A stretch of DNA of 64,000 nt, taken from assembly GCA_963764725.1 (NCBI GenBank), contig CAVXTM010000015.1, positions 128,001 to 192,000 of the forward strand. Direction: 5' to 3'. Below are positions 5,354-44,175 of the stretch, piece by piece (position 1 is the first letter of the stretch; each line of letters opens with the position of its first letter). This DNA comes from an uncultured Gammaproteobacteria bacterium. Its GTDB lineage: Bacteria; Pseudomonadota; Gammaproteobacteria; JACCXJ01. The translations under genes were made by a program, and so were the position numbers. The notes under the pieces are model-generated. The model was not told the DNA's origin. It searched no databases and was given only the letters and a program-made list of their open reading frames with translations.

Positions 5354-6244
5354 CTACACCTCCGGTTCAAAGACGAATTGGATCTCGCGCAGTTGCTGGA
5401 ACAAGCGCGGATCGTCGGGTACCGGTAACGGTGACGCCTTGCGTACCGCGATCTCCGCTTGCCGGTCAAACACCGGGTTGCCGCTCGATCGTATCACCTC
5501 GGCGTCCACGACGTCGCCCCCGGGCACCATCTTGACCAACAGTTCGCAGGATAGTCCCCGCTCGGGATAATTGAAGGTGTTGCCGATCTGAGTCCGGATG
5601 AGTTTAATATATTTATCGATTTCACTTTGATCGCGCTCGCGCTCCTTGGCCTCGGCGCGGGCTTTTTCATCCGCGGCCAGGGCCGCGGCTAATTCCCGCT
5701 GGCGCCGCTCTTCTTCTTTACGCTTTTTCTCGGCCTCGACCTTCTTGCGTTGCTCCTCGGCGAGACGTTTCTTCTCCGCTTCGGCCTGCTGACGCTCTTC
5801 ACGTTTTTTCGCAAGCGCTTTTTCCTGTGCGATTCGCTTCTGCTCCTCGGCCAGCCGCTGTTTCTCCTCGCGTTTGCGTTTATCTTCAGCCTGTTTAAGC
5901 TGCTGTTCTTGCTTGCGTAAGGCCGCTTGTTCCTGCTTGAGTTCCTCTAAGCGTTTCTCCTCGGCTTGACGCTTCTGTTTCGCGACGGCCACATCGCGTT
6001 CAAGCGCCTCGCGGCGTGCCTGTTCGTCTTTACGCTTGCGCCGTTCGGCCTCCTTCAGCCGTTGCACCTCGGCTTCGACCTTGTTTTGATCGATGGCGAC
6101 TGCCTGTACGATCTGAGAGCTTGGTTTGGATGCGGGCGGAAGCTCGCCGAGGTTCAGGCTCAGCGCCAGTAATACAATCGCGACCGCATGGATCGCGACC
6201 GCATAGATAAACGATCGAAACGAGCGGAGCCGCCTTCGAACCAT
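5354..6244 (-). CDS. tolA: Cell envelope integrity protein TolA
   Basis: N-terminal TM with His, K/E/A-rich helix, C-terminal SSGNPVFD...ASPLPVP. Confidence 0.92.
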
Positions 6245-6251
6245 CGTGCCG

Positions 6252-6677
6252 TCAGCGTTCCGGCGGCTGCGTCATAAGCCCAACCCCTTGCACACCGGCG
6301 CCCTGGAGCGCCGCCATCAGCTCTACCACCCGTGCGTACGCGACTGCTTGGTCGCCATTAACGAGGACCGGCACATTGGGTTTGTAACGCAGCACGGCCT
6401 GGACGCGGTTTAACAGCGTTTCTTTGCTCACGGGATCGTGCCGGTGGTCCCCGAAATCAATATAGTAATTACCTTTCCTGTCCACTGTGATGATCAGCGG
6501 TTCGGTATCGCTCGGGGGCACCGGTTCGGAGGCGGCTTGCGGCAGATCCACCTTGACCCCTTGGGTGATGAGCGGTGCGGTGATCATGAAGATGATCAGC
6601 AACACCAACATCACATCGATGTAGGGGACGACGTTGATATCCGACATCAGGCGCTTACGCTTGTGTCTCACCGCCAT
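6252..6677 (-). CDS. tolR: TolR
   Basis: INVVPYIDVMLVLLIIFMITAP. Confidence 0.95.
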   Translation of the reverse strand: MAVRHKRKRLMSDINVVPYIDVMLVLLIIFMITAPLITQGVKVDLPQAASEPVPPSDTEPLIITVDRKGNYYIDFGDHRHDPVSKETLLNRVQAVLRYKPNVPVLVNGDQAVAYARVVELMAALQGAGVQGVGLMTQPPER

Positions 6678-6707
6678 GCCCTTGAGACTCCCCCGGCCAT
6701 GTTTCGT

Positions 6708-7382
6708 TCAAGCGTGCGCTTGGCGGTGCAAAATGGAGGAAAACTCCTCCAGGAATATGTCGTAGCGGCTGAACAAGCGGTCGATATCGTTGGCGTAATG
6801 ATTGTAAGCAATGACCGCGGGAATGGCCGCGAACAAGCCCATGGCCGTGGCGATCAAGGCCTCGGAGATCCCGGGGGCCACCATGGCGAGCGTTGCTTGA
6901 TGCACGTTGGCCAGGGCTTGAAAGGAGTTCATGATGCCCCAAACGGTGCCGAAGAGGCCCACGTACGGGCTCACCGAGCCCACCGTGGCGAGCAGCGGCA
7001 AGCTCTGCTCGAGGTCTTCGATCTCCCGGTTCAAGGCCACGCGCATTGAGCGTTGCGCGCCCTCCAAGACGGCGCCTGGCTCAATGCCGTCTTGCTGGCG
7101 CAAGCGGGCGAATTCCTTGATACCGGCTTCAAAGATCCGTTCGAGCCCCGAGGGCTCGTGGCTGCGCTGCGCGATCCGGTTATAGAGCTCGGTGAGGTCA
7201 TCGGCCGACCAAAAGCGATCCTCGAATTTAGCCGCATCGCGCTGCGCTTTCCTAACCACGGCGCGTTTATTGAAGATCACCGTCCAAGACCAAAGCGAAG
7301 CGGCGATCAAAACCACCATCACGAACTTGACCAATAGGCTGGCGCCCAGGATCAAATTGGTAATCGAAAGATCAGTCGCCAT
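6708..7382 (-). CDS. tolQ: TolQ
   Basis: SPYVGLFGTVWGIM; APGISEALIATAMGLFAAIPA. Confidence 0.96.
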   Translation of the reverse strand: MATDLSITNLILGASLLVKFVMVVLIAASLWSWTVIFNKRAVVRKAQRDAAKFEDRFWSADDLTELYNRIAQRSHEPSGLERIFEAGIKEFARLRQQDGIEPGAVLEGAQRSMRVALNREIEDLEQSLPLLATVGSVSPYVGLFGTVWGIMNSFQALANVHQATLAMVAPGISEALIATAMGLFAAIPAVIAYNHYANDIDRLFSRYDIFLEEFSSILHRQAHA

Positions 7383-10092: not shown

Positions 10093-11925
10093 GCTGCGTC
10101 CGGAGGGCGCTTGGTTAGCGGTGAAAGTCCATGCCATAGGAAGTCGCAGCCTGTGTAGCGAGGTGACTGCGTCGCCGTGAGGCGGGGTGGGGAGCAACCG
10201 GAGGTCGAAAGAACAGCCCGGAGGCTGACGAACGCGATTCGGCGGCATGTGGCGGCGATGCTCACTCATGGTCGAAGCCCGGACTTGCCGGACGCGCTGA
10301 GGTGGCTGCAAAAGCGACGTTCGGGCGCATGACGTGGATGGAGACGGGATGTACGGAATGCAAAGCGGCGTAAGCGGAGAGACCTGTTCCGAGTTCGGGC
10401 GAGCGCGGCAGGAGTCAGAGCCCGCATAGGACCGAGGCGGCATAAGCCGAGAGGGCTGGCTAGCAAAACCGGTCGGAGGGAAGGCGGGCGGTGAGGTGGA
10501 ATCGTGAAAGCCACGACGAAGCAAAAGACAGCATCGACAGTGCTCGCAGGGGCTGAACAAGGTGCAGAAGCCCGCGACTGGATCGTGGGTGGAAGCCTCG
10601 GTGTGGACGGAGCGCATGGTGTCGGCGCTGGTGAACGGCGTCGAGGGAGGCAAGTGGTACAGTTTGATGGACAAGGTGTACGCGCCCAGAAACGCTGGCG
10701 TCGGCCGGCGGAAGAGTCCGGGGCAACAAAGGTGCGGCGGGCGTGGATGGGCAAAGCGTGGAACGGATCGCAGCCGGTGCGGAAACGTACTTGGCGGAGC
10801 TGAGCCGGGAACTGCGGAAGGAAGTTATCGGCCGCAGCGGTGAAACGGGTGGACATTCCGAAAGGCGATGGCAAGACGCGACCACTGGGGATCCCGCACG
10901 GTCAAGGACCGCATCGTCCAGACGGCGGTCAAGCTCGTGATTGAGCGGTCTTCGAGGCGGAGTTCTGTCCAGGGAGCTACGGATTTCGACCGGGCGGAGC
11001 TGCAAGGAGGCGTTGCGGGAAGTCGATGGGCTGCTCAAGGCCGGGTACGCCTTGTGGTGGACGCCGACCTCAAGAGCTGCTTCGACAGCATTCCGCATGG
11101 CAAGCTGATGGAACGGGTGGAAGCACGGATAGCAGATGGACGCGTGCTCGACCTGCTCCGAGGGTGGCTCAAGCAGGACATCCTGCGGGGTCTGGAGCAT
11201 TGGACGCCCGACCGGTGGCACGCCGCAAGGCGCGGTCATCAGTCCGCCTTGGCCAATCTCTACCTGAGCCCCTGGATGACATGGATGGCGGGCGAGGCTA
11301 TCGGATGGTCCGCTACGCGGACGACTTCGTCGTGCTGTGTCGCAGCCGAGAGGAGGCCGAGGGCCGCACTCTCGAACATCCGTGCGTGGGTAGCGGAGAC
11401 TGGACTCACCCTGCATCCGGACAAGACGCTACGTGGGCGACTGCCGGGAGGCGGGAGAAGGTTTTGACTTCCTCGGTTGCCGGTTTGAAACCGGGCGACG
11501 CTGGGTGCGGAGAAAGAGCCTCATGCGCCTCAAGGACGGCATCCGGGCAAGACGCGGCGGACGCGGGGCGCAAGTCTTGCACGGGTCATCGCGGAATTGA
11601 ACCCGATGCTGCGAGGCTGGTTTGGTTACTTCAAGCATGCCGATTCGAGTACCTTTCGCAAGTTGGACGGATTCATCCGGCGACGGCTGCGCGCGCTCTT
11701 GCGCAAGCCGAGAGAAACGCCCCGGGCTTCGGACGCTGTCTGGCCGACCAGAAACGCTGGCACAATGTCTTCTGATCGCGGACGCCGGGCTGTTCGCCCT
11801 AAACACAGCCTGGCAGACCGCGAGACACGCACGATGAGGAAACCACTGACTGGAGAGCCGTGTGCGGGAAAACCGCTACGCACGGTTCGGAGGGCGGGGA
11901 GGGCGCGAGCCCTTCCCGACCCTAT
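10093..11925 (+). mobile_element. Group II intron (degenerate)
   Basis: 5' G(C)TGCGTCC close to GUGYG; domain V GAGCCGTGTGCGGGAAAACCGCTACGCACGGTTC (AGC triad) at about 11855-11888; domain VI ending CCCTAT at 11925; internal RT ORF. Confidence 0.88.
10504..11837 (+). pseudogene. ltrA: Group II intron reverse transcriptase/maturase, many frameshifts
   Basis: Fragments WYSLMDKVY, TVKDRIVQTA, VVDADLKSCFDSIPH, LANLYL, RYADDFVV, LNPMLRGWFGYF spread across frames; no endonuclease domain seen. Confidence 0.88.
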
Positions 11926-12091: not shown

Positions 12092-12306
12092 ATGTTTAAA
12101 TCTGATCTCCGATCAAGTCCAGAAAGGACGATCTACTCGCCCGAGGGTCCTTTTCGTCCGCGTTAGCCGACGCAATTCTGTCGTACGGTAACAAGGACAG
12201 TGTTGTCACCGCTTTGTATGGCGCTTGGGGTTGGCAAATCATCAGTCGTAAACATGGTGCTTGAACGAATTGAAGAAGCCAGTTCGAGCATGCCGAGCCC
12301 AAAACG
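12092..12306 (+). pseudogene. N-terminal stub of a KAP-family P-loop NTPase, cut by IS256
   Basis: With two frame corrections: MFKSDL-IKSRKDDLLARGSFSSALADAI...VVTALYGAWG-GKSSVVNMVL (Walker A with KAP-type GxWGxGKS). Confidence 0.7.
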
Positions 12307-12700
12307 GAGAAATAGTCAAATGTTGTGTACGGGGCTAGGTTAGGCAGCGATTTTTTGGGGTCTTCCCATAAGCCGTCTTTGAAAATAACTCCCTCGATGA
12401 CTTGAGCGAGGCGGGGAATTCCATACAGTTTCCTCCAATGTCGCTCGGCACTTCTTACCAACATGAATACCATCGCCAAAATGCTTTCTCGAGACACGCA
12501 GCCACGGGTTTTGTGGGTGCGCAGCCGGACCGTAGCAAAGGTAGATTCGATCGGATTGGTGAGATGGATCCAGTGCTCGGCCGGAAAATCGTAGAAGGCC
12601 AACAGTGACCCCCGATCTCTTTCCAAACACTCCGCAGCTTTCGGATACTTGGGACGGTAGAGGGTCAGAAACTCATCGAAGGCGCGCTCGGCCTCCTGCC
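12307..12700 (-). mobile_element. IS256-family fragment (transposase C-terminus plus one terminal repeat)
   Basis: YPKAAECLERDRGSLLAFYDFPAEHWIHL-TNPIESTFATVRLRT; end sequence GAGAAATAGTCAAATGTTGTGTA at 12307. Confidence 0.85.
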
Positions 12701-36692: not shown

Positions 36693-37715
36693 TCAAAGCG
36701 AGGCATCCAGCGGACTTCTTACCCCGCGCCCGCCCCGGTTGAGCACATGGGTATAGATCATGGTGGTCGAGACATCGGCGTGGCCGAGGAGCTCCTGCAC
36801 CGTTCGTATGTCGTAGCCGCCCTGCAACAGGTGCGTTGCGAAGGAATGGCGTAGGGTGTGGCAACTTGCAGGCTTTACCAAACCCGCGGTCCGAACCGCC
36901 TGTCTGAGACCACGCTGCAACACCGTCGGGTCGATATGATGCCTCCGCTCGATTCCGCTCGTCGGGTCGATCGACCGTTTCGATGCCGGAAAGACATACT
37001 GCCATCCCCATTCGCGATTGGCATTGGGGTACTTGCGCTCCAGCGCATAGGGCAGGTAGACGGTGCCAAAGCGCTCGGAGAGATCCCGCTCGTGCAGAGC
37101 CTTGACCTTGGAGAGATGCGTCCTTAGCGGTTCGACGAGCTGGGCGGGCAGCATAGTGATGCGGTCCTTCGCACCCTTGCCGTCGCGCACGACGATCTGG
37201 TGCATCGCGAAATCAAGGTCCTTGATGCGCAGCCGAAGGCACTCCATGAGTCGAAGTCCACTGCCGTAGAGCAGCCCTGCCATCAACCAGACGCTGCCCT
37301 TAAGCTCAGCCAGCACCGCGCGCACCTCCTCTACCGTCAAGACTATTGGCAAACGCACCGGCCGTTTGGCGCGTTCCACATTCTCAATGGTACCGAGCTC
37401 TTGCAGGAGCACGTGATGGTAGAGAAATACGAGCGCGTTGAGGGCCTGATTCTGCGTCGAAGCCGAGACCTTCCGCGCCACGGCCAAGTGTGTGAGGAAG
37501 GCTTCGACCTCGCGGGCACCCATCTGGCGTGGATGGCGCTTGCCGTGGAATAATATAAAGCGTTTAATCCAATGTATGTAGGCTTGCTCGGTGCGAATGC
37601 TGTAATGTCTCCGACGAACGACATCGCGAACCTGATCAAGCAGTCGGGGCGGAGGCGCTGGCGATTTGACGGCAACTTGCTCCTCGCCGTCTTTCCAACC
37701 AAGAACGATTCCCAT
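36693..37715 (-). CDS. intI: Integron integrase
   Basis: [25 protein letters not shown], integron-specific insert [43 protein letters not shown]. Confidence 0.97.
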
Positions 37716-37919: not shown

Positions 37920-37952
37920 GGCGGCAGATCGGCCGCCCATTACATGTTGGGC
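37920..37952 (+). other. attI region and first crossover core
   Basis: GTTGGGC at 37946-37952 is the exact complement of the first attC R'' (GCCCAAC); upstream attI limit approximate. Confidence 0.7.
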
Positions 37953-37980: not shown

Positions 37981-38202
37981 ATGGAAAAGCAACTTACAGC
38001 TATCATCGAGCGTGAAGGAGATGGCTATGTTTCACTCTGCCCCGAGCTGGACATTGCGAGCCAGGGTGGCACTATCGAAGAGGCGCGCGATAACCTCCAA
38101 GAAGCTCTTCAGCTTTTCTTTGAATCCGCTTCGCCTGACGAGATCAAGCAACGTTTCCACGAAGAAGTGTATGTAACGCGGGTGCCCGTTGCCGTTGGGT
38201 AA
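37981..38202 (+). CDS. hicB: HicB-family antitoxin (cassette 1)
   Basis: IIEREGDGYVSLCPELDIASQGGTIEEARDNLQEAL. Confidence 0.88.
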   Translation: MEKQLTAIIEREGDGYVSLCPELDIASQGGTIEEARDNLQEALQLFFESASPDEIKQRFHEEVYVTRVPVAVG

Positions 38203-38416
38203 ATTGAGAGCACTTTCCGGGAAAGAGCTATGCGCTATTCTCAACCGGCATGAATTCGTGGAAGTGCGTCAGCGGGGTAGCCACATCGTGATGCAAAAGA
38301 AGCTGCTGGGCACAACGATAACGGTGCCAGTGCCAAATCATCCAGAGCTTCGCATAGGCACGCTTCAGTCGATCATTCGTCAGTCCGGTGTACCACGGAG
38401 CGAGTTTGAGTCATGA
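38195..38416 (+). CDS. hicA: HicA-family toxin (cassette 1)
   Basis: LSGKEL, RQRGSHIVM, VPVPNHPEL, GTLQSIIRQSG; overlaps the hicB stop. Confidence 0.9.
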   Translation: MGKLRALSGKELCAILNRHEFVEVRQRGSHIVMQKKLLGTTITVPVPNHPELRIGTLQSIIRQSGVPRSEFES

Positions 38417-38423
38417 GGTTGGC

Positions 38424-38486
38424 GCCCAACAACGCGCTCCACACGGACGCTCCTGATCGTCGCGCCGGTGAGCTTATGCGTTAGGT
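38424..38486 (+). other. attC site 1
   Basis: R'' GCCCAAC ... R' GTTAGGT, imperfect palindrome. Confidence 0.88.
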
Positions 38487-38499
38487 CTCACAGGTAGAC

Positions 38500-38928
38500 A
38501 TGCCGGACATTTCACCTCCAGTCGCGACACTCCTGGCAGTATTGCTCAGCGGCTTCTTGTTGCTATATGTCAATCGCAAGAATGCCCGCCGAACCGCTAC
38601 GGCGAAGTATCGTGCTGCGCTACTTGAGGCATTCACCGGTCTTTACCCAATTCCAACCAATTGGCCAGTCAACGTTGACGCGCATCTGAGGCAGATCTTT
38701 CCTCAACTTCAGCGCGCTGTAGCGGAGTTCCGTTCGTATGTTCCTTGGCGTCGCGCTTACGATCGAGCTTGGTTCGTGTATCGTCTTGGCACGGATGGTC
38801 GTGAAATCGACAAGCAGCTCTATCATCAGTACATGGGTTTCACTTCTCCCGGGGAACCGGTCATTAATCCCAAGGGAACGTTCTATACCAACGTCAACAA
38901 GTTGCTTGGTTTCGCCAGTGAGACCTAA
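38500..38928 (+). CDS. Hypothetical protein with N-terminal TM (cassette 2)
   Basis: Fills the cassette; stop lies within the R'' ACCTAAC. Confidence 0.8.
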   Translation: MPDISPPVATLLAVLLSGFLLLYVNRKNARRTATAKYRAALLEAFTGLYPIPTNWPVNVDAHLRQIFPQLQRAVAEFRSYVPWRRAYDRAWFVYRLGTDGREIDKQLYHQYMGFTSPGEPVINPKGTFYTNVNKLLGFASET

Positions 38929-38985
38929 CAACGCGTTCAAGGGGCGACGCGCGAAACGCGCGCGCCCTTAACGCGGGCGTTAGCT
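38923..38985 (+). other. attC site 2
   Basis: R'' ACCTAAC (TGAGACCTAAC complements the cassette start GTTAGGTCTCA) ... R' GTTAGCT; GC-rich stem. Confidence 0.92.
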
Positions 38986-39001: not shown

Positions 39002-39817
39002 ATGTCAGATGACTCGAACGCCATAAAGATTGCAAACGACTCCGGCTTTCCGCTTCAAATTGTTGTTGAAACGATCGTTACAAAGTTGACGAAGTCTCAC
39101 GGCTGGAAGGTCCGCTTTTCTGAACACTCGTGGGCCAATCGTAAGGGCAGCGCCAGCGGCTTTATTGATTTGGTTCTAGAAGACAAGCACGGGAGTACGT
39201 ATCTCGTTCTAGAATGCAAGCGAAAGAACGAAACTTGGGTATTTATGCGCACGGACGGTACTGCAAAAACGCGGAAACACGCAAAGGCGTGGGCAACTCA
39301 CTATAGAGAAGAAACCCTAAAGCGGTTTGGATGGGAAGATGTTACGCCGGACCCGGCTTGTCCAGAAGCTAGTTCCTGTGCTGTTCGCGGGATGTCCGCT
39401 AACGACAAGACAACTATGCTGGAGCGAATCGGCGGCGAGCTTATAGAAGCAACAGAGGCCTTCGCCCGGGAACAGCGCGACTTCCGTCGATCGAAGCAAG
39501 AGACGATTCGTTTCTATTTCAACGTTATCGTAACTACCGCCCAACTGAAGATTGTAAAGTTCGCTCCGGAATCCATTTCCCTTGAGGATGGAACGTTTGC
39601 GGACGCAGAGGTTGTGGACGTTCCTTTTGTTCGCTTTCGAAAGCAGCTTTCGTCTCGCGCGGTACGCTTGACGCATGAGCAGTTCGAGAACGGGTTCGAC
39701 CCTGCATATGAGAGAGAGAATACGGTGTTTGTTGTTAGAGCAAGCGAACTCCTCGACTTTCTCCAACAATTTGAACTGTCTGAAAATGACTTTCTTAAAT
39801 TTGCGCATGAAAGCTAA
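39002..39817 (+). CDS. PD-(D/E)XK nuclease-like protein (cassette 3)
   Basis: SGFPLQ...FIDLVL...LVLECKR pattern; lower GC; stop within R''. Confidence 0.7.
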   Translation: MSDDSNAIKIANDSGFPLQIVVETIVTKLTKSHGWKVRFSEHSWANRKGSASGFIDLVLEDKHGSTYLVLECKRKNETWVFMRTDGTAKTRKHAKAWATHYREETLKRFGWEDVTPDPACPEASSCAVRGMSANDKTTMLERIGGELIEATEAFAREQRDFRRSKQETIRFYFNVIVTTAQLKIVKFAPESISLEDGTFADAEVVDVPFVRFRKQLSSRAVRLTHEQFENGFDPAYERENTVFVVRASELLDFLQQFELSENDFLKFAHES

Positions 39818-39901
39818 CCATCGCATCAAAGCCGTTCGCTTCTCTCACTCGACCGCGCAAGCGCGATGCACTTGCGCGGCGCTTTATGCGAGTCGTTGGG
39901 C
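39812..39901 (+). other. attC site 3
   Basis: R'' AGCTAAC ... R' GTTGGGC; inner palindrome CCGCGCAAG/CTTGCGCGG. Confidence 0.9.
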
Positions 39902-39971
39902 CGATCGTGGCGGCGTGCTATCCGAGGGGCTCCAGTCCGCGTCATCTCCTGAGGCTCCCTGAGACCTTTCG

Positions 39972-40851
39972 ATGGTTCTGAGTCGTCCGACGTGCGAGGC
40001 GGGTGTGATGACGAGTCCACGCGCAACCTTGCCTCTCTTTGGAGGCGTCCACTGCGACACCGACGTTCTCACTTGGACTGGCCGATGCGTGATCGGCACC
40101 ATTCCATGCCGCATCTACGCACCGAGCCCGCTGCCCGCTTGGATTCCGTCTTCGCTAGGACCATTGGCGGCGCCTTTAGATCCGCAGTATCAGAAGGATC
40201 CGGATTGGCCAGCCGGCGGTTGGGGAATAATCAACTCCAGGCGCTCGGCAACTATAGAGGCACTTGGCCTTGAATACCTTGACCACGACCCTCCTCCAGA
40301 TCTGTTACGGTTTGATAGGGACGTCGCGCACTGGAGGACGGTGTTTCAAGACTGGCTCACTGTGCTCGCTGGAGGTCCTACAGCCTTCGAGGAACGTGAC
40401 CCCGGTACGATATGGAATACCAAAGAGCGAGCTCGCGACCTCATGTACGCAAGCTACTACGCGGGTGATATCTGGGAACCAGAAGCGATCACACGCTGGC
40501 AGTGGGAGCATGCCTTTGATCATTCTGTGGCCGGTGATGCCGCACCGCTGTCCCGAAAGCTCCTCGCGCTTGCCACACGGGACGCGGCACGGGCAGATGG
40601 GCGTAGCGCCGTGATTCATGCGGCAACGGCTGCGGAATGCGCTTTGACGAGGGGGCTCTTGCGGCAACTCCAGTTAACAGCTCTCCAGAAGAGGCTCACC
40701 TCACACTTAGCAAGACTCGCATGTTGGGACGGCGTCTAGCGCAGCCGTAGCTTCGGCCTCGACAATCATCAATGAGCTTGACCCCCTCTCAGAGCACTGC
40801 GAGGAGCCAACCCGTGAATACCTTCTCGATAGTGAGTCTGACGAGAAATGA
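39972..40851 (+). pseudogene. Hypothetical cassette 4 gene with a disrupted 3' part
   Basis: ORF 39972-40739 plus out-of-frame tail AAVASASTIINELDPL...DEK* ending just before R''. Confidence 0.55.
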
Positions 40852-40857
40852 GACTCG

Positions 40858-40864
40858 GCCCAAC
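40858..40864 (+). other. attC site 4, R'' box (left part, split by insertion)
   Basis: TCGGCCCAAC is the exact complement of the cassette 4 start GTTGGGCCGA. Confidence 0.85.
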
Positions 40865-41177
40865 CAGTAACCAGTAAGGATTGAGACGACCATGGATGGT
40901 CGTTTCAATCCAATGTTCAAGAAGCCCGGTGTTGGGTGGGTTCTTTATTAGGGGATTGCTTCGGTGAAGGGTGGGTGATGTGGTGGCTATGGGAATCGGG
41001 AGCTGGAGATAGCCGAGTAGAGGGCGATCGGATCTGGGTGTTGGGTATCGTAATCGGGACGGGTTTAGGGAACTGTTAATAATGCCTTTCAGGGTGGGAT
41101 TAGGGGTAGCAGGCAAAGGGAGGACGTGACCCGAAGAAGACACCGGGGGCAGCGCGGCGTTTGCAAGTTGCTATGGG

Positions 41178-42307
41178 CTACACATGGGCTGGGGATCGTG
41201 TCGAGCCGGGTGGTCTGAGGTTTGTGGGCATCCATGGGCGGCGGATGCGCCGTGAGCTATGGAAGCGGAGTCGTCCCCCGCAGGCCTGGCAGGCCGGTTG
41301 TGGCCGGGGTGGCAGTTCGACCTCCGGTACGGTCACGGTGAAGCCAAAGGCCAATTCGACTTTGGCCTTGAGATCTGCGATGGGCACCTTGGCGGTGGGC
41401 GACAGGAAGCCATAGTAGCGGACTTTCATGAACCCGGTAGGCAAGACGTGCTGGAGGAAACGGCGGATGAACTCCAAGGCGTCGAGGATCACGGTCCGCA
41501 ACCGAGCGCTGCCGGTTTTTTTGTAGGAGAAGGAGACCCGTCCGTCCTCGACCTTGAGGATGCGGTGATCCGAGATAGCCACCTTGAAGACGTAGGGAGC
41601 GAGATAGGCGATCGAAGCCTCGGCACTGGGTACGGCCTGGCAGTTGACGTTCCAGTCCTGCTGCCAGGTCTCCGAGGGGATCTGATCGAGCAGTCCGGCG
41701 GTGTGCATGAGATCGCGGAACTTGCCGCGGAAAAGCCGTGAGAGGGCTTTCACGGGCAAGAAGAAGGCGAGGCTTGAGGCATGCCAGGCGCCATCCTCAG
41801 CGGAAAGCGCCCCGCCCGGTACCACATAATGGATGTGGGGGTGATACTGTAGCTGTCGGCCCCAGGGTGAAGCACTCCGAAGAAGCCGGCTTGGTCCGCG
41901 TTGAGGAAGCGCGGATCGCGCACCAGCGTTTTGATGGCTTGAGAGGAGGCCTGGAACAGTGCATCGTAGCCCAGTTGCTGGTGGCTGCGCAGAAACGCGC
42001 GCAGGGGCTCGGGGACGGTGAAGGTGAGCATGAAGTGGTGGCCTGGCAGCTGGCGATGCAATTGTCGCTCGAGCCACTGTTGGGACTTGCGGTGTTGGCA
42101 GCCGGGGCAATGACGATTGCCGCAGGCGGCCGGGACGCGATGGTGATGGCCGCATTCCTCGCACTGATAGCAGACTGAGCCATAGATCTCGGTGCGGCAT
42201 TGGCAGATGGCCTCGAGGGTCTTTTTGTGCTCTCTGGGCATGGATTGTTCGTAGTGCTGGAGATATCCAGGGCCGTAGGTGCGGAAGATGTCATTGATGA
42301 TCCCCAT
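41178..42307 (-). CDS. IS91-family Y2/HUH transposase with N-terminal Zn-binding domain (1-nt frameshift near 41868)
   Basis: CRT..CEEC..CGNRHCPGC, LTFTVP, LH-WGRQLQYHPHIH (HUH), YLAPY (Y2), FIRRFLQHVLP, VRYYGFL. Confidence 0.9.
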
Positions 42308-42308
42308 C

Positions 42309-43182
42309 TCAAAGGCCCTCCATCACTTGGTTGATGAGGGTTGAGGCGTTGTCCTGACCGGCCTGGGTCATATGGAGGTAGACCATAGTGGTCTCGAGGC
42401 TGCTGTGGCCGAGGTAGCGCTGGATGGTGCGGATATTGACGCCGGCTTCCAGCAGGTGAGTAGCATAGGAATGTCTGAGAGAATGCACGCAGGCCTCGCG
42501 TGCTCGGGTCTGAGCGGCGAACTTGGCGCGACGGAAGGTGCCCTGCACGGAGCTCTTAGCCATGGGGTGGGAAGCCGAGCGGGCGGACTTGGCATCGCGC
42601 CCCATCGCGGGGAAGAGGAGCCTCGGGTTACGATGCGAGGCCCAGTGTTTGCGCAGGATGAGGAGGGTTGCTTGAGGCAGGGGGACGAGGCGGTCTTTGG
42701 CCCCTTTGCCGCGGTGGATGTGCAACATCATCCGCTGGCTGTCAATATCGGCGATCTCCAGATGCTGGGCCTCCTGCAGCCTCAGGCCGCAGGCGTAGAC
42801 GGTGGCGAGGAAGGCGTAGTTGTGTGGGGTTCGGACGCAGCTCAGCAAGCGGCGGACTTCTTCACGGCTGAGCACGGTGGGCAGCTGCTTCTCGCGTTGG
42901 GCATGGATGAGTCGAAGGGTATGCCAGTTGCGGTGAAGGACGTACTCGAAGAAGAAGCGGATCCCGCTATAGCAGATCCGTAAAGTGGCCGGTGACCAAC
43001 GATCGACGTTTCGCCGGTGGAGAAAATAGTGTTGCAGATCCTCCTCGGTGATCTGATCCGGGGTTTTATGATAAAACTCCACGAGCATGCGCACCGCACG
43101 GGTGTACGCTTCTTGGGTGCGCTCGCCCTTTGCCGTTGAGCTGGAGGGCTTGAATGGATTTCTCGTACCAATCTTTCATCAT
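42309..43182 (-). CDS. Tyrosine recombinase (1-nt frameshift near 43128)
   Basis: MKDWYEKSIQALQLNG-GERTQEAYTRAVRML..., YACGLR, GKGAKDR, HSLRHSYATH, LGHSSLETTMVYLH; lacks the IntI insert. Confidence 0.9.
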
Positions 43183-43355
43183 GGAAGGTCTCCTGTCGTA
43201 AAGGGATTAGAAGTCCGGGAAGCTCCGCGGACTTCGGACAGGAAAACAGAATTGACGTGAGGGCTAAAGACCGGCGACCGATGGGTGTGAGACAAACCGA
43301 ACTACGGCAACCAGGATCGGCAAACCGAATCTGCCGCGTAGCGGCTTACTTGAAC

Positions 43356-43444
43356 TAGCGGTTGCAGCGGAGCGCTCGCCGCAGACTTTGAAGGTAGCTA
43401 GAATTTGGTGGCGGCTTCGCGCCCGCTGAACCTGATCGTTGGTC
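43356..43444 (+). other. attC site 4, remainder (L'', L', R')
   Basis: TAGCGGTTGCAGCGG...CCGCTGAACCTGATC-GTTGGTC. Confidence 0.85.
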
Positions 43445-43541
43445 GGCGCGCAGCGCCGGGGCCACAGCCTTTAGAACGGGAGATGGGTGTGGATAGGATC
43501 ACAGGCTTTGATAACCACGATCGTGACGGCGCTAAGCCCGA

Positions 43542-43571
43542 GTAGGGCGGAACGCCGAAGGTGGTTCCGCC
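43542..43571 (+). repeat. REP (GTAG type)
   Basis: GTAG followed by palindrome GGCGGAAC...GTTCCGCC, about 30 nt upstream of the RAYT gene. Confidence 0.8.
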
Positions 43572-43600
43572 GCATGAATGAGAGGTGATAAGGTTGACCA

Positions 43601-44175
43601 ATGCCGGATTATCGTCGTTATCGTGTACCCGGAGGCACGTACTTTTTCACCATCAATTTATTGGAGCGTCGGGCCGACTTGTTGGTGCGACATATCGAAG
43701 CGTTACGGGAGGCGGTGAAGCGTACGCGGGCCAAACGACCATTCCATATCGATGCCTGGGTCGTGCTACCCGATCACATGCATTGCGTGATTACCCTACC
43801 ACCCGGCGACGATGGCTTTTCCAATCGCATTCAGGGTTCGCTTTGTACAGGCGCTGGCGCCCGACGGAGCGGCGTTCATCGGTACGAATGGCCAAGGGTG
43901 AAAGCCAGGGCCAGGGATTGGCCCTGCCTGGCGCGCTGAGGATGCAACGTGGTATCTGGCAACGCCGTTTTTGGGAGCATGCCATTCGGGACGAGAGAGA
44001 TTATTCGCGCCATATGGATTACGTCCACTTCAACCCGGTCAAACATGGCTACGTTTCGGTGGTTGCTCAATGGCCCCATTCGACGTTTCATCGGTGGGTG
44101 AAGGCAGGTGCCTATCCACACGACTGGGGCGGCGAGGGTGCGTTGGATGTTGTCGCCGGCGAGCATGGACAATAA
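43601..44175 (+). pseudogene. REP-associated tyrosine transposase (RAYT), frameshifted, with a 45-nt insertion
   Basis: MPDYRR..PGGTYFFT, VVLPDHMH (HUH), IWQRRFWEHAIRD, YVHFNPVKHG, WPHSTF split over two frames. Confidence 0.9.

Follow-up and report, generated by a model that had tools for sequence, protein, structure and literature searches.

A widespread clade of IS91-family elements with a coupled tyrosine recombinase inserts preferentially at the R'' box of integron attC sites

To our knowledge, homing to the attC sites of integron gene cassettes is recognised for only two kinds of mobile element, namely the IS1111-attC elements of the IS110 family, which home to attC in one orientation, and the group IIC-attC introns. 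The excerpted texts of two reports describe invasion of attC by IS1111 elements (PMC9229058) and homing of group IIC-attC introns to attC in its folded or single-stranded form (PMC7923331). For IS91, the excerpted text of a further source describes insertion without target duplication, a target tetranucleotide beside oriIS, a terIS with a subterminal hairpin upstream of the genes, an oriIS downstream of them, and GTTC as the terIS tetranucleotide (PMC13181058). In the 64,000-nucleotide stretch of an uncultured Gammaproteobacteria bacterium analysed here (the window; GCA_963764725.1, contig CAVXTM010000015.1, positions 128,001–192,000), a small chromosomal integron is present, and the attC site of its fourth cassette is split by an element that encodes an HUH/Y2 transposase and a tyrosine recombinase. 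The ends of this element, its target and the absence of a duplication conform to the rules of the IS91 family. We conclude with high confidence that the clade to which it belongs inserts without duplication and in a fixed orientation, directly 3' of the terminal YAAC of the R'' box, on the attC top strand.

In the window, cassette 4 starts at the R' box GTTGGGC (39895–39901, + strand) of the preceding attC site, attC3 (39812–39901; 448–537 of L001, the window locus), which scores 25.5 bits with the attC covariance model R1 described below. Every cassette of this integron has a terminal sequence complementary to its own first bases over 9–12 nt. Cassette 4 opens with GTTGGGCCGA (39895–39904), and the complement, TCGGCCCAAC, is located at 40855–40864, where it includes the R'' box GCCCAAC (40858–40864, + strand) with CAAC as the insertion target. 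The remainder of this attC lies at 43356–43444 (+ strand) and consists of a 5-nt spacer (TAGCG), an L'' arm with two bulged bases (GTTGCAGCGG ...), a loop, the L' arm (CCGCTGAAC), a 6-nt spacer (CTGATC) and the R' box GTTGGTC, which ends at 43444. The gap between R'' and the spacer and L'' corresponds to a 2491-bp insert (40865–43355). The insert ends in CTTGAAC (43349–43355, + strand), whose AAC replaces that of R'' and lies at the normal 5-nt distance from L'', so that the right-hand hybrid site keeps attC geometry. With R1, which was built from other sites, the hybrid (43349–43444) scores 37.9 bits (E 2.2e-5) and CTTGAAC occupies positions 1–7 of the model; in the minimum free energy (MFE) fold of the hybrid, AAC:GTT is paired and both bulges are in place.

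Relatives of the element were collected in two sets. The species-genome set derives from a scan of one genome per species, of which the best 80 of 116 relatives were kept (transposase identity 47–89%). The replication set comprises 80 of at least 507 relatives on metagenome contigs, and its criteria were fixed beforehand. Labels in the species set include Chromatiales, Accumulibacter, Burkholderiales, Desulfobacterota, Rokubacteria, Anaerolineales, Terriglobales, Spirochaetales and SAR324, and at least 19 assemblies of this set, labelled as Gammaproteobacteria, Betaproteobacteria, Desulfobacterota, Rokubacteria, Terriglobales (Acidobacteriota) and SAR324, carry the element. Element ends were read from the limits of homology between copies in multi-copy genomes, together with the conserved termini; both termini are kept across the family, at 47–100% amino-acid identity and in many phyla. 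Model R1 (72 positions, 17 pairs) was built from 26 attC sites without a neighbouring element, 17 of them from elsewhere in the window's genome and nine from the flanks of other loci. It rests on alignment A3; two MAFFT seed alignments, A1 and A2, had right arms out of register and were set aside. An energy-only scan for RYYYAAC...GTTRRRY with constrained MFE was also discarded, being unspecific in this GC-rich genome and missing the window's own attC sites.

When 85 species-set loci (506,585 bp) were searched with R1, 91 matches were obtained at E ≤ 1. Positions 1–7 of the model fell exactly on the terminal CTTGAAC at 27 of the 57 non-redundant terIS ends (15/57 at E ≤ 0.01). The metagenome set has 40 non-redundant ends flanked by 50 nt or more, and 24 of these gave exact-register matches (17/40 at E ≤ 0.01); one of the 24, L115, almost duplicates the L012 site of the species set. 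The background was at most 62 other R1 matches over 9268 AAC sites outside elements (Fisher p ~4e-41). A cruder stem-matching score, applied to 56 of the 57 species-set ends (all except L031), marked 22/56 element ends versus 116/9268 AAC sites. It is unlikely that the shared CTTGAAC produced the R1 matches artefactually, as diverse flank sequence accounts for 65 of the 72 model positions. All 51 end matches have a single orientation, in which the element + strand, antisense to the element genes, is the attC top strand. Six further species-set ends missed by R1 (L027, L028, L030, L044, L052 and L070) look attC-like by stem score or by eye, and in the metagenome set there is one additional match with a 4-nt offset, and by eye a further five ends are attC-like.

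The finding of attC targeting is real, replicated and wider than had been supposed, and the clade is widespread. An initial annotation of the window had proposed an attC-homing IS91-type element that inserts beside NAAC without duplication, to be checked by scoring the rebuilt site and the flanks of homologues with an attC covariance model. The proposal is borne out by the exact-register attC ends in both sets, and each of the two checks agrees with it. As a possible refutation, the annotation had named homologues that lie mostly outside attC; the family is strongly enriched in attC, but 30–50% of insertions are elsewhere (about a third after inspection by eye).

The left junctions define the target. 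Among 84 non-redundant left junctions, the tetranucleotide is TAAC in 63, CAAC in 11, TATC in four, GAAC in three and another sequence in three, and the consensus, G-C-C/A-T-A-A-C, is that of R''. As in IS91, a specific target tetranucleotide adjoins the oriIS end (TAAC and CAAC in 63 and 11 of the 84, respectively); the NAAC proposed earlier proves to be narrower, YAAC in most cases. In L002, a second copy in the window's own assembly (G000), the cassette's first 15 nt reappear, exactly reverse-complemented, immediately left of the element (CAGATGCCGCATAAC), indicating that YAAC is part of the R'' box of the cassette and not of the element. This is in line with the earlier suggestion that the CAAC at the window site derives from the target. 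A reverse complement of the 9 nt nearest the left junction was detected 272–1321 nt upstream in 11/46 insertions compared with 60/2365 control AAC sites, as would be expected of left flanks that are cassette ends.

Two observations concern the flanks of individual loci. The right flanks of L081 and L002, which come from unrelated genomes, carry attC remainders that are ~89% alike over 71 nt by eye, with element proteins only ~60% alike and different left flanks. In L036, L048, L049, L074, L075 and L080 (Desulfobacter/Desulfobacterium records), a ~125-nt repeat (AACGGGGAGCTGAGGGGCC ... GGTCCCTCTCCAGCGTT) occurs near the elements on the opposite strand.

The transposase is a member of the IS91 family: the intact homologue of L002 (389 aa) scores 347 bits on NF033538 (cutoff 125). 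The best NCBIfam model for the recombinase is the integron integrase (IntI) model TIGR02249, at 180 bits (below the cutoff of 265) and in two separate stretches. In a pairwise alignment, the recombinase is 31% identical to the IntI encoded in the window and is without ~35 IntI residues between conserved blocks. The sub-cutoff score and the missing segment show the recombinase to be a relative of IntI rather than an IntI itself. Its gene is located directly upstream of the transposase gene (2–17 nt) at 55/64 and 55/59 loci with room for it. In the domain search of the window element, only Y2_Tnp and Phage_integrase were found and no DEDD transposase of the IS110 family; in the plasmid collection, there was no close relative of the transposase, the best being 37.8% identical.

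By analogy with IS91, the gene-downstream end was assigned as oriIS and the gene-upstream end as terIS. On the + strand, oriIS in the family reads YAAC|C-N-N-T-A-A, hairpin, NNT and GTTCAAGAAGCCCGG, giving a spacing of YAAC, 6 nt, the conserved hairpin, 3 nt and GTTCAAG. The outer 7 bp of the hairpin (GGATTGA/TCAATCC) are conserved and its inner part is variable. In 25 diverse members, 94% of cells are paired in the hairpin, compared with 16–50% with slid partners, and three pairs show compensatory change, a number reached in 3/500 shuffles. At terIS, a small hairpin is followed by TTACTTGAAC, and the motif GCCGCG(N)AGCGGCTTACTTGAAC is conserved in both sets; as in IS91, a subterminal palindrome stands beside a target-like cleavage tetranucleotide.

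The terminal CTTGAAC is the exact complement of the GTTCAAG box past the ori hairpin. When the two ends are joined, the order is CTTGAAC, 5–6 nt, the conserved stem, 3 nt and GTTCAAG, corresponding to two paired 7-bp boxes, an unpaired bubble and a stem, a predicted structure that mimics the layout of folded attC. A natural ter-ori junction is available in the metagenome locus L136 (1499–1565, − strand), where the ter end of one element adjoins the ori end of the next in tandem. The fold predicted for this junction (−15.1 kcal/mol, z −5.7) is attC-like: its 7-bp boxes pair, its spacers stay unpaired and a stem is formed. After integration, the cassette YAAC, the ori hairpin and the GTT of GTTCAAG share the attC-like layout, so that oriIS with its flanking tetranucleotide and the folded attC top strand look alike. 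R1 gave no match at E ≤ 1 on the left hybrid or the ori end.

Solo ori-type hairpins, with an AAC box and a GTT box other than GTTCAAG, are present in L153 near 345–290 (− strand), in G000 contig C1 at 111675–111735, and in L149 near W 6976. In L153, the solo hairpin is directly past the ter end and is followed by GTT|GGTT.... Such hairpins may have arisen through recombination at the GTT box or may be element-derived attC-like sites. As candidate traces of IntI-type recombination they were rejected, being rare (3 of ~100 ori hairpins qualify), and the solo-hairpin fragments considered as such traces in the window's genome are simply decayed element ends. L020 (W 414–540) has a duplicated ori module, in which a first hairpin ending in GTTCAAC precedes CCCTAAC and an entire second ori end.

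How the element enters attC can be explained in several ways. The explanation that we favour, with moderate confidence, is that the HUH/Y2 transposase uses the attC top strand, when folded, as a pseudo-origin at which it joins the element circle. As in IS91, the transposase would nick 3' of the flanking YAAC at the oriIS end and peel off the strand antisense to its own gene; termination at the element's own ...CTTGAAC would free a single-stranded circle, the strand of which would be re-inserted 3' of YAAC. As rolling-circle replication from ori to ter needs a 3'-OH primer, the primer would be the flank next to oriIS, and the displaced strand, YAAC^...CTTGAAC^, would thus be the window + strand, which is the attC top strand. 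attC would be preferred because its folded top strand copies the origin, with YAAC, 5–6 unpaired nt, a stem and an AAC:GTT closure. In chromosomal integrons, attC top strands are on the lagging-strand template and able to fold, according to the excerpted text of PMC11023631. Insertions outside attC would result from the default, tetranucleotide-directed pathway of the transposase. These insertions have the same junctions, retain YAAC and show no excess structure (mean z of flank folding 0.0, n = 18, compared with −1.64, n = 29, in the attC class), which fits a tetranucleotide-directed transposase as the inserting enzyme. The recombinase would be an accessory protein, possibly with a role in target capture or circle handling.

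Several observations weigh against the transposase acting at a folded pseudo-origin. The attC bottom strand also offers YAAC and a hairpin, yet no insertion has that orientation. The coupled recombinase, conserved at most loci, is given no defined role. In the strict test, 30/57 and 16/40 ends are not at attC; ~11 of these are attC-like by eye and the rest are plain sequence, indicating that attC is strongly preferred but not obligatory. Of three copies in one genome that are 100% identical, one ends in CTTGAA-T, a hint that strand exchange at AA^C might fit better than cleavage after the C. No circle junction or empty site was detected in metagenome contigs aligned from four runs, which cover the element and the downstream cassette only, and this outcome favours no reading; the best runs are contig sets with at most 0.47 of the sampled words. 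Nor was an empty-site allele of cassette 4 found, as 39906–40864 is present only in G000 among the 41 genomes searched. As neither an intermediate of transposition nor an empty site or circle junction was observed, we infer both the direction of transfer and the enzyme responsible.

The main alternative, which we consider possible but less probable, is a division of labour in which the HUH transposase makes the single-stranded circle and the IntI-like recombinase pastes it into attC through an AA^C exchange with R''. The circle junction would fold like attC, and the reaction at the top-strand R'' would be the mirror of the IntI reaction at the bottom-strand R'. As AAC is the sole sequence common to both element junctions, the sequence fits pasting by the transposase or by the recombinase alike. 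The affinity of the recombinase to integron integrases (180 bits on TIGR02249, 31% identity to IntI) and its coupling to the transposase (55/64 and 55/59 loci) are consistent with such a role, as is the strict orientation of all 51 matches. Read on the transposase-sense strand, the element resembles an inverted cassette, which begins with TTCAAG and ends in its own attC-like site before GTTRRRY. The conserved outer 7 bp and variable inner stem of the hairpin resemble the R and L boxes of attC, and the box-bubble-stem fold of the L136 junction (z −5.7) would suit a recombinase that acts on folded strands. The CTTGAA-T end looks as if its last base came from the target, and the solo ori hairpin at the ter end of L153, with GTT|GGTT..., looks as if recombined at the GTT box. 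However, insertions outside attC, with the same junctions and no structure, are most simply explained as made by the transposase; R1 gives the left hybrid and the ori end no attC match at E ≤ 1, and solo hairpins are rare (3 of ~100). Also, in Dinoroseobacter shibae, plasmid pDSHI01 carries a gene pair of this kind (36%) without the end motifs, suggesting that the pairing of recombinase and transposase is older than attC targeting. If the division of labour were true, the element would be part transposon and part integron cassette, a chimera, with a stripped-down IntI-like recombinase. It would be the first natural coupling of a rolling-circle nuclease with a tyrosine recombinase that acts on folded single strands, and the recombinase would be without precedent among known enzymes in using the attC top strand, which is normally non-recombinogenic.

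It is improbable that the host IntI inserts or shuffles the element passively by reading the junction hairpin as attC, which would make the element an odd cassette with no targeting of its own. Elements do lie within cassette arrays, and beside intI in the window, and the excerpted text of the sul4 paper suggests passive shuffling for ISCR28 beside attC sites (PMC12772301). However, gene cassettes have their boundaries at G|TT of R', where IntI acts, whereas the element junctions are at the AAC of R'' (AAC|); IntI strongly prefers the bottom strand, as stated in the excerpts of PMC11023631; and ~30–50% of copies are outside any attC. A unit composed of cassette, element and attC remainder is duplicated within a single array (L002 and L004), the two copies being 98% alike across 3321 nt. 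Its right limit of homology is exactly at the GTT of R', with different cassettes beyond, as passive movement would predict, but its left limit is 13 nt inside the cassette and so 13 nt off the GTT. The duplicated unit is weakly compatible with movement of the composite by IntI. The initial annotation had raised this movement together with the preserved spacing from the terminal AAC to L''; the spacing holds, and the movement goes no further than this weak compatibility, given the position of the left limit.

A coincidence of motifs, in which the transposase needs only YAAC and strikes attC because every R'' (RYYYAAC) offers one such target, would account for the copies at plain YAAC but is very improbable, as in array-bearing loci at most 62 of 9268 AAC sites are R'', compared with 27/57 and 24/40 insertions (p 4e-41), and the orientation is single throughout.

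The window copy of the element is inactive, as both of its genes are frameshifted. The element proper is 2484 bp (40872–43355; + strand from the oriIS end to the terIS end), as delimited by homology with four other copies in G000 and by the conserved family termini. It is preceded by 7 extra nt, CAGTAAC (40865–40871, + strand), one unit of an AACCAGT tandem repeat that is unique to the window copy. The oriIS hairpin, GGATTGAGACGACCAT / ATGGTCGTTTCAATCC (40878–40911, + strand), has 16-nt arms that are 94% complementary (−14 kcal/mol, z −5.4). It is followed by the GTTCAAG box (40915–40921, + strand), and 40915–40928 pairs with 43342–43355 as an inverted repeat. The transposase gene (41178–42307, − strand; Pfam Y2_Tnp, 176.9 bits) is frameshifted near 41860 and split across the open reading frames 41178–42200 and 41750–42307; its translation shows HPHIH and Y-x3-Y. 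The recombinase gene (42309–43182, − strand; Pfam Phage_integrase, 116 bits, and Phage_int_SAM_4) is frameshifted near 43125, and metagenome contigs have one base fewer at 43125/43126. The subterminal hairpin of terIS, GCCGC-GTA-GCGGC (43333–43345, + strand), has −5.9 kcal/mol and z −0.7, which is unremarkable by energy alone.

For this region (40858–43444), the coordinates and motifs of the initial annotation all hold, including the 2491-bp insert and the GAAC end. The frameshifts of both genes had escaped it, as had the share of family insertions outside attC. The coupled tyrosine recombinase and HUH/Y2 transposase that it placed on the bottom strand agree with the Pfam domains, and a repeat search of the window element revealed no terminal inverted repeat or flanking duplication beyond AAC, as it had stated. 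Both hairpins that it had named are present, but GCCGC-GTA-GCGGC is the weak one by energy. The AACCAGT repeat is likewise present, but the 7-nt ambiguity that it was thought to impose on the left junction is settled by the other copies, the extra unit being confined to the window.

A DNA search of the window's own assembly revealed, besides fragments, four further near-full copies (L002–L005; 89–91% identity). In L002–L005, both genes are intact (transposase 376–391 aa, recombinase 290 aa), and the recombinase gene stops 1 nt ahead of the transposase start. Every copy in this genome has the right terminus ...GCCGCGTAGCGGCTTACTTGAAC and a left end of YAAC followed by CAGTAAGGATTG...; the left ends of L002, L003, L004 and L008 read YAAC|CAGTAAGG, without the 7-nt extra. 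To the right of the terminal AAC, all five copies have a short (5-nt) spacer, a bulged arm of L'' type, a loop, an L' arm, a spacer and GTTRRRY. The copy on contig C9 is itself interrupted, at element position 213, by ~1 kb of other DNA (6183–7166, between L008 and L005).

The integron of the window has its cassettes on the + strand downstream of the integron integrase gene intI (36693–37715, − strand), the product of which scores 496.5 bits on TIGR02249 (cutoff 265) and has the Pfam domains Phage_integrase and Phage_int_SAM_4. An attI-like GTTGGGC is located near 37947, and attC sites between cassettes are at ~38421–38488, 38923–38985 and 39812–39901 (+ strand). The first cassette (37981–38416, + strand) encodes a HicB-like/HicA pair (HicA_toxin, 63.2 bits; UPF0150-like, 16.7 bits, below cutoff). 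The cassette after the split attC (43438–43939, + strand) starts with GTTGGTCGGCGCGCAGCGCC and contains a weak remnant of an IS200-like Y1_Tnp (19.1 bits, below cutoff); the same cassette start is repeated beside other element copies, on contig C10 of G000 near 129860 and 133206. Far from the window intI, contigs C1, C2, C4, C8, C10, C11, C13, C15 and C18 of G000 carry many attC-like sites of one sequence type, GCCYAAC AAGGC GCTSCACCGGAC ... GGTGAGC ... GTTRG, either single or in small clusters. The Rfam model for the group II catalytic intron (RF00029) matches 11853–11925 (+ strand; 51.8 bits, above the gathering score), ~25 kb upstream of the integron, and a fragment of a Mutator-family transposase is located near this match (12096–12626).

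No description of attC targeting by IS91-type elements was found in the full-text literature, a coverage outside which ISfinder/TnPedia and supplements lie. The element would be a third kind of attC-homing mobile element and the first based on an HUH enzyme. Also new here, as read from the sequence, are the joined ends, which are predicted to form an attC-like hairpin, and the recombinase, which appears nearest to integron integrases and is without their extra segment. The element offers a natural probe for the timing and location of attC top-strand folding in cells, and the locus shows that a cassette can gain a passenger of 2.5 kb with attC geometry preserved at the downstream site. As integron-finding tools would see a lost R'' box at such sites, insertions of this kind may explain broken or mis-annotated arrays. 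The combination of an IntI-like recombinase, a rolling-circle transposase and an attC-like junction connects IS91-type elements, in a way open to experiment, with how integron sites arose or are exploited.

Compared with this element, the IS1111-attC elements use an unrelated DEDD-type transposase and a different position in attC, and have neither an HUH enzyme nor a tyrosine recombinase. Group IIC-attC introns are retroelements with a ribozyme and a reverse transcriptase, and differ in orientation and position. IS91, IS801 and IS1294 are alike in transposase family, in the absence of inverted repeats and target duplication, and in the placement of a terIS with a small subterminal hairpin upstream of the genes and a hairpin oriIS downstream. 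As in IS801 and IS1294 (excerpts of PMC13181058), the element terIS reads GTTC on the gene-sense strand and the target resembles the terIS tetranucleotide. Unlike these three, the element has GTTA/GTTG, not GTTC/CTTG, as its target on the gene-sense strand, strongly prefers a structured site, attC R'', and has a coupled tyrosine recombinase in place of orf121 or no extra gene. On pDSHI01 of D. shibae, an annotated site-specific integrase is likewise directly upstream of an IS91 family transposase, but that transposase is only 36% identical, the conserved end motifs of this clade are absent, and the pDSHI01 element is not known from attC. Further integrase-bearing IS91 members, for example ISAzo26 and ISSod25, are presumably listed in ISfinder. 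ISShvi3 and ISCR28 are published IS91-like elements seen beside attC; in the excerpted reports, these are single observations read as passive carriage, with no statement of targeting, of a junction position, of an orientation rule or of a family-wide test, and ISCR models match the element transposase only weakly (22 bits). With gene cassettes and IntI, the element shares a folded single-strand site, two paired boxes around a bubble, AAC/GTT at the junctions and the absence of duplication, but its junction is at the top-strand R'', not the bottom-strand R', and it carries its own enzymes.

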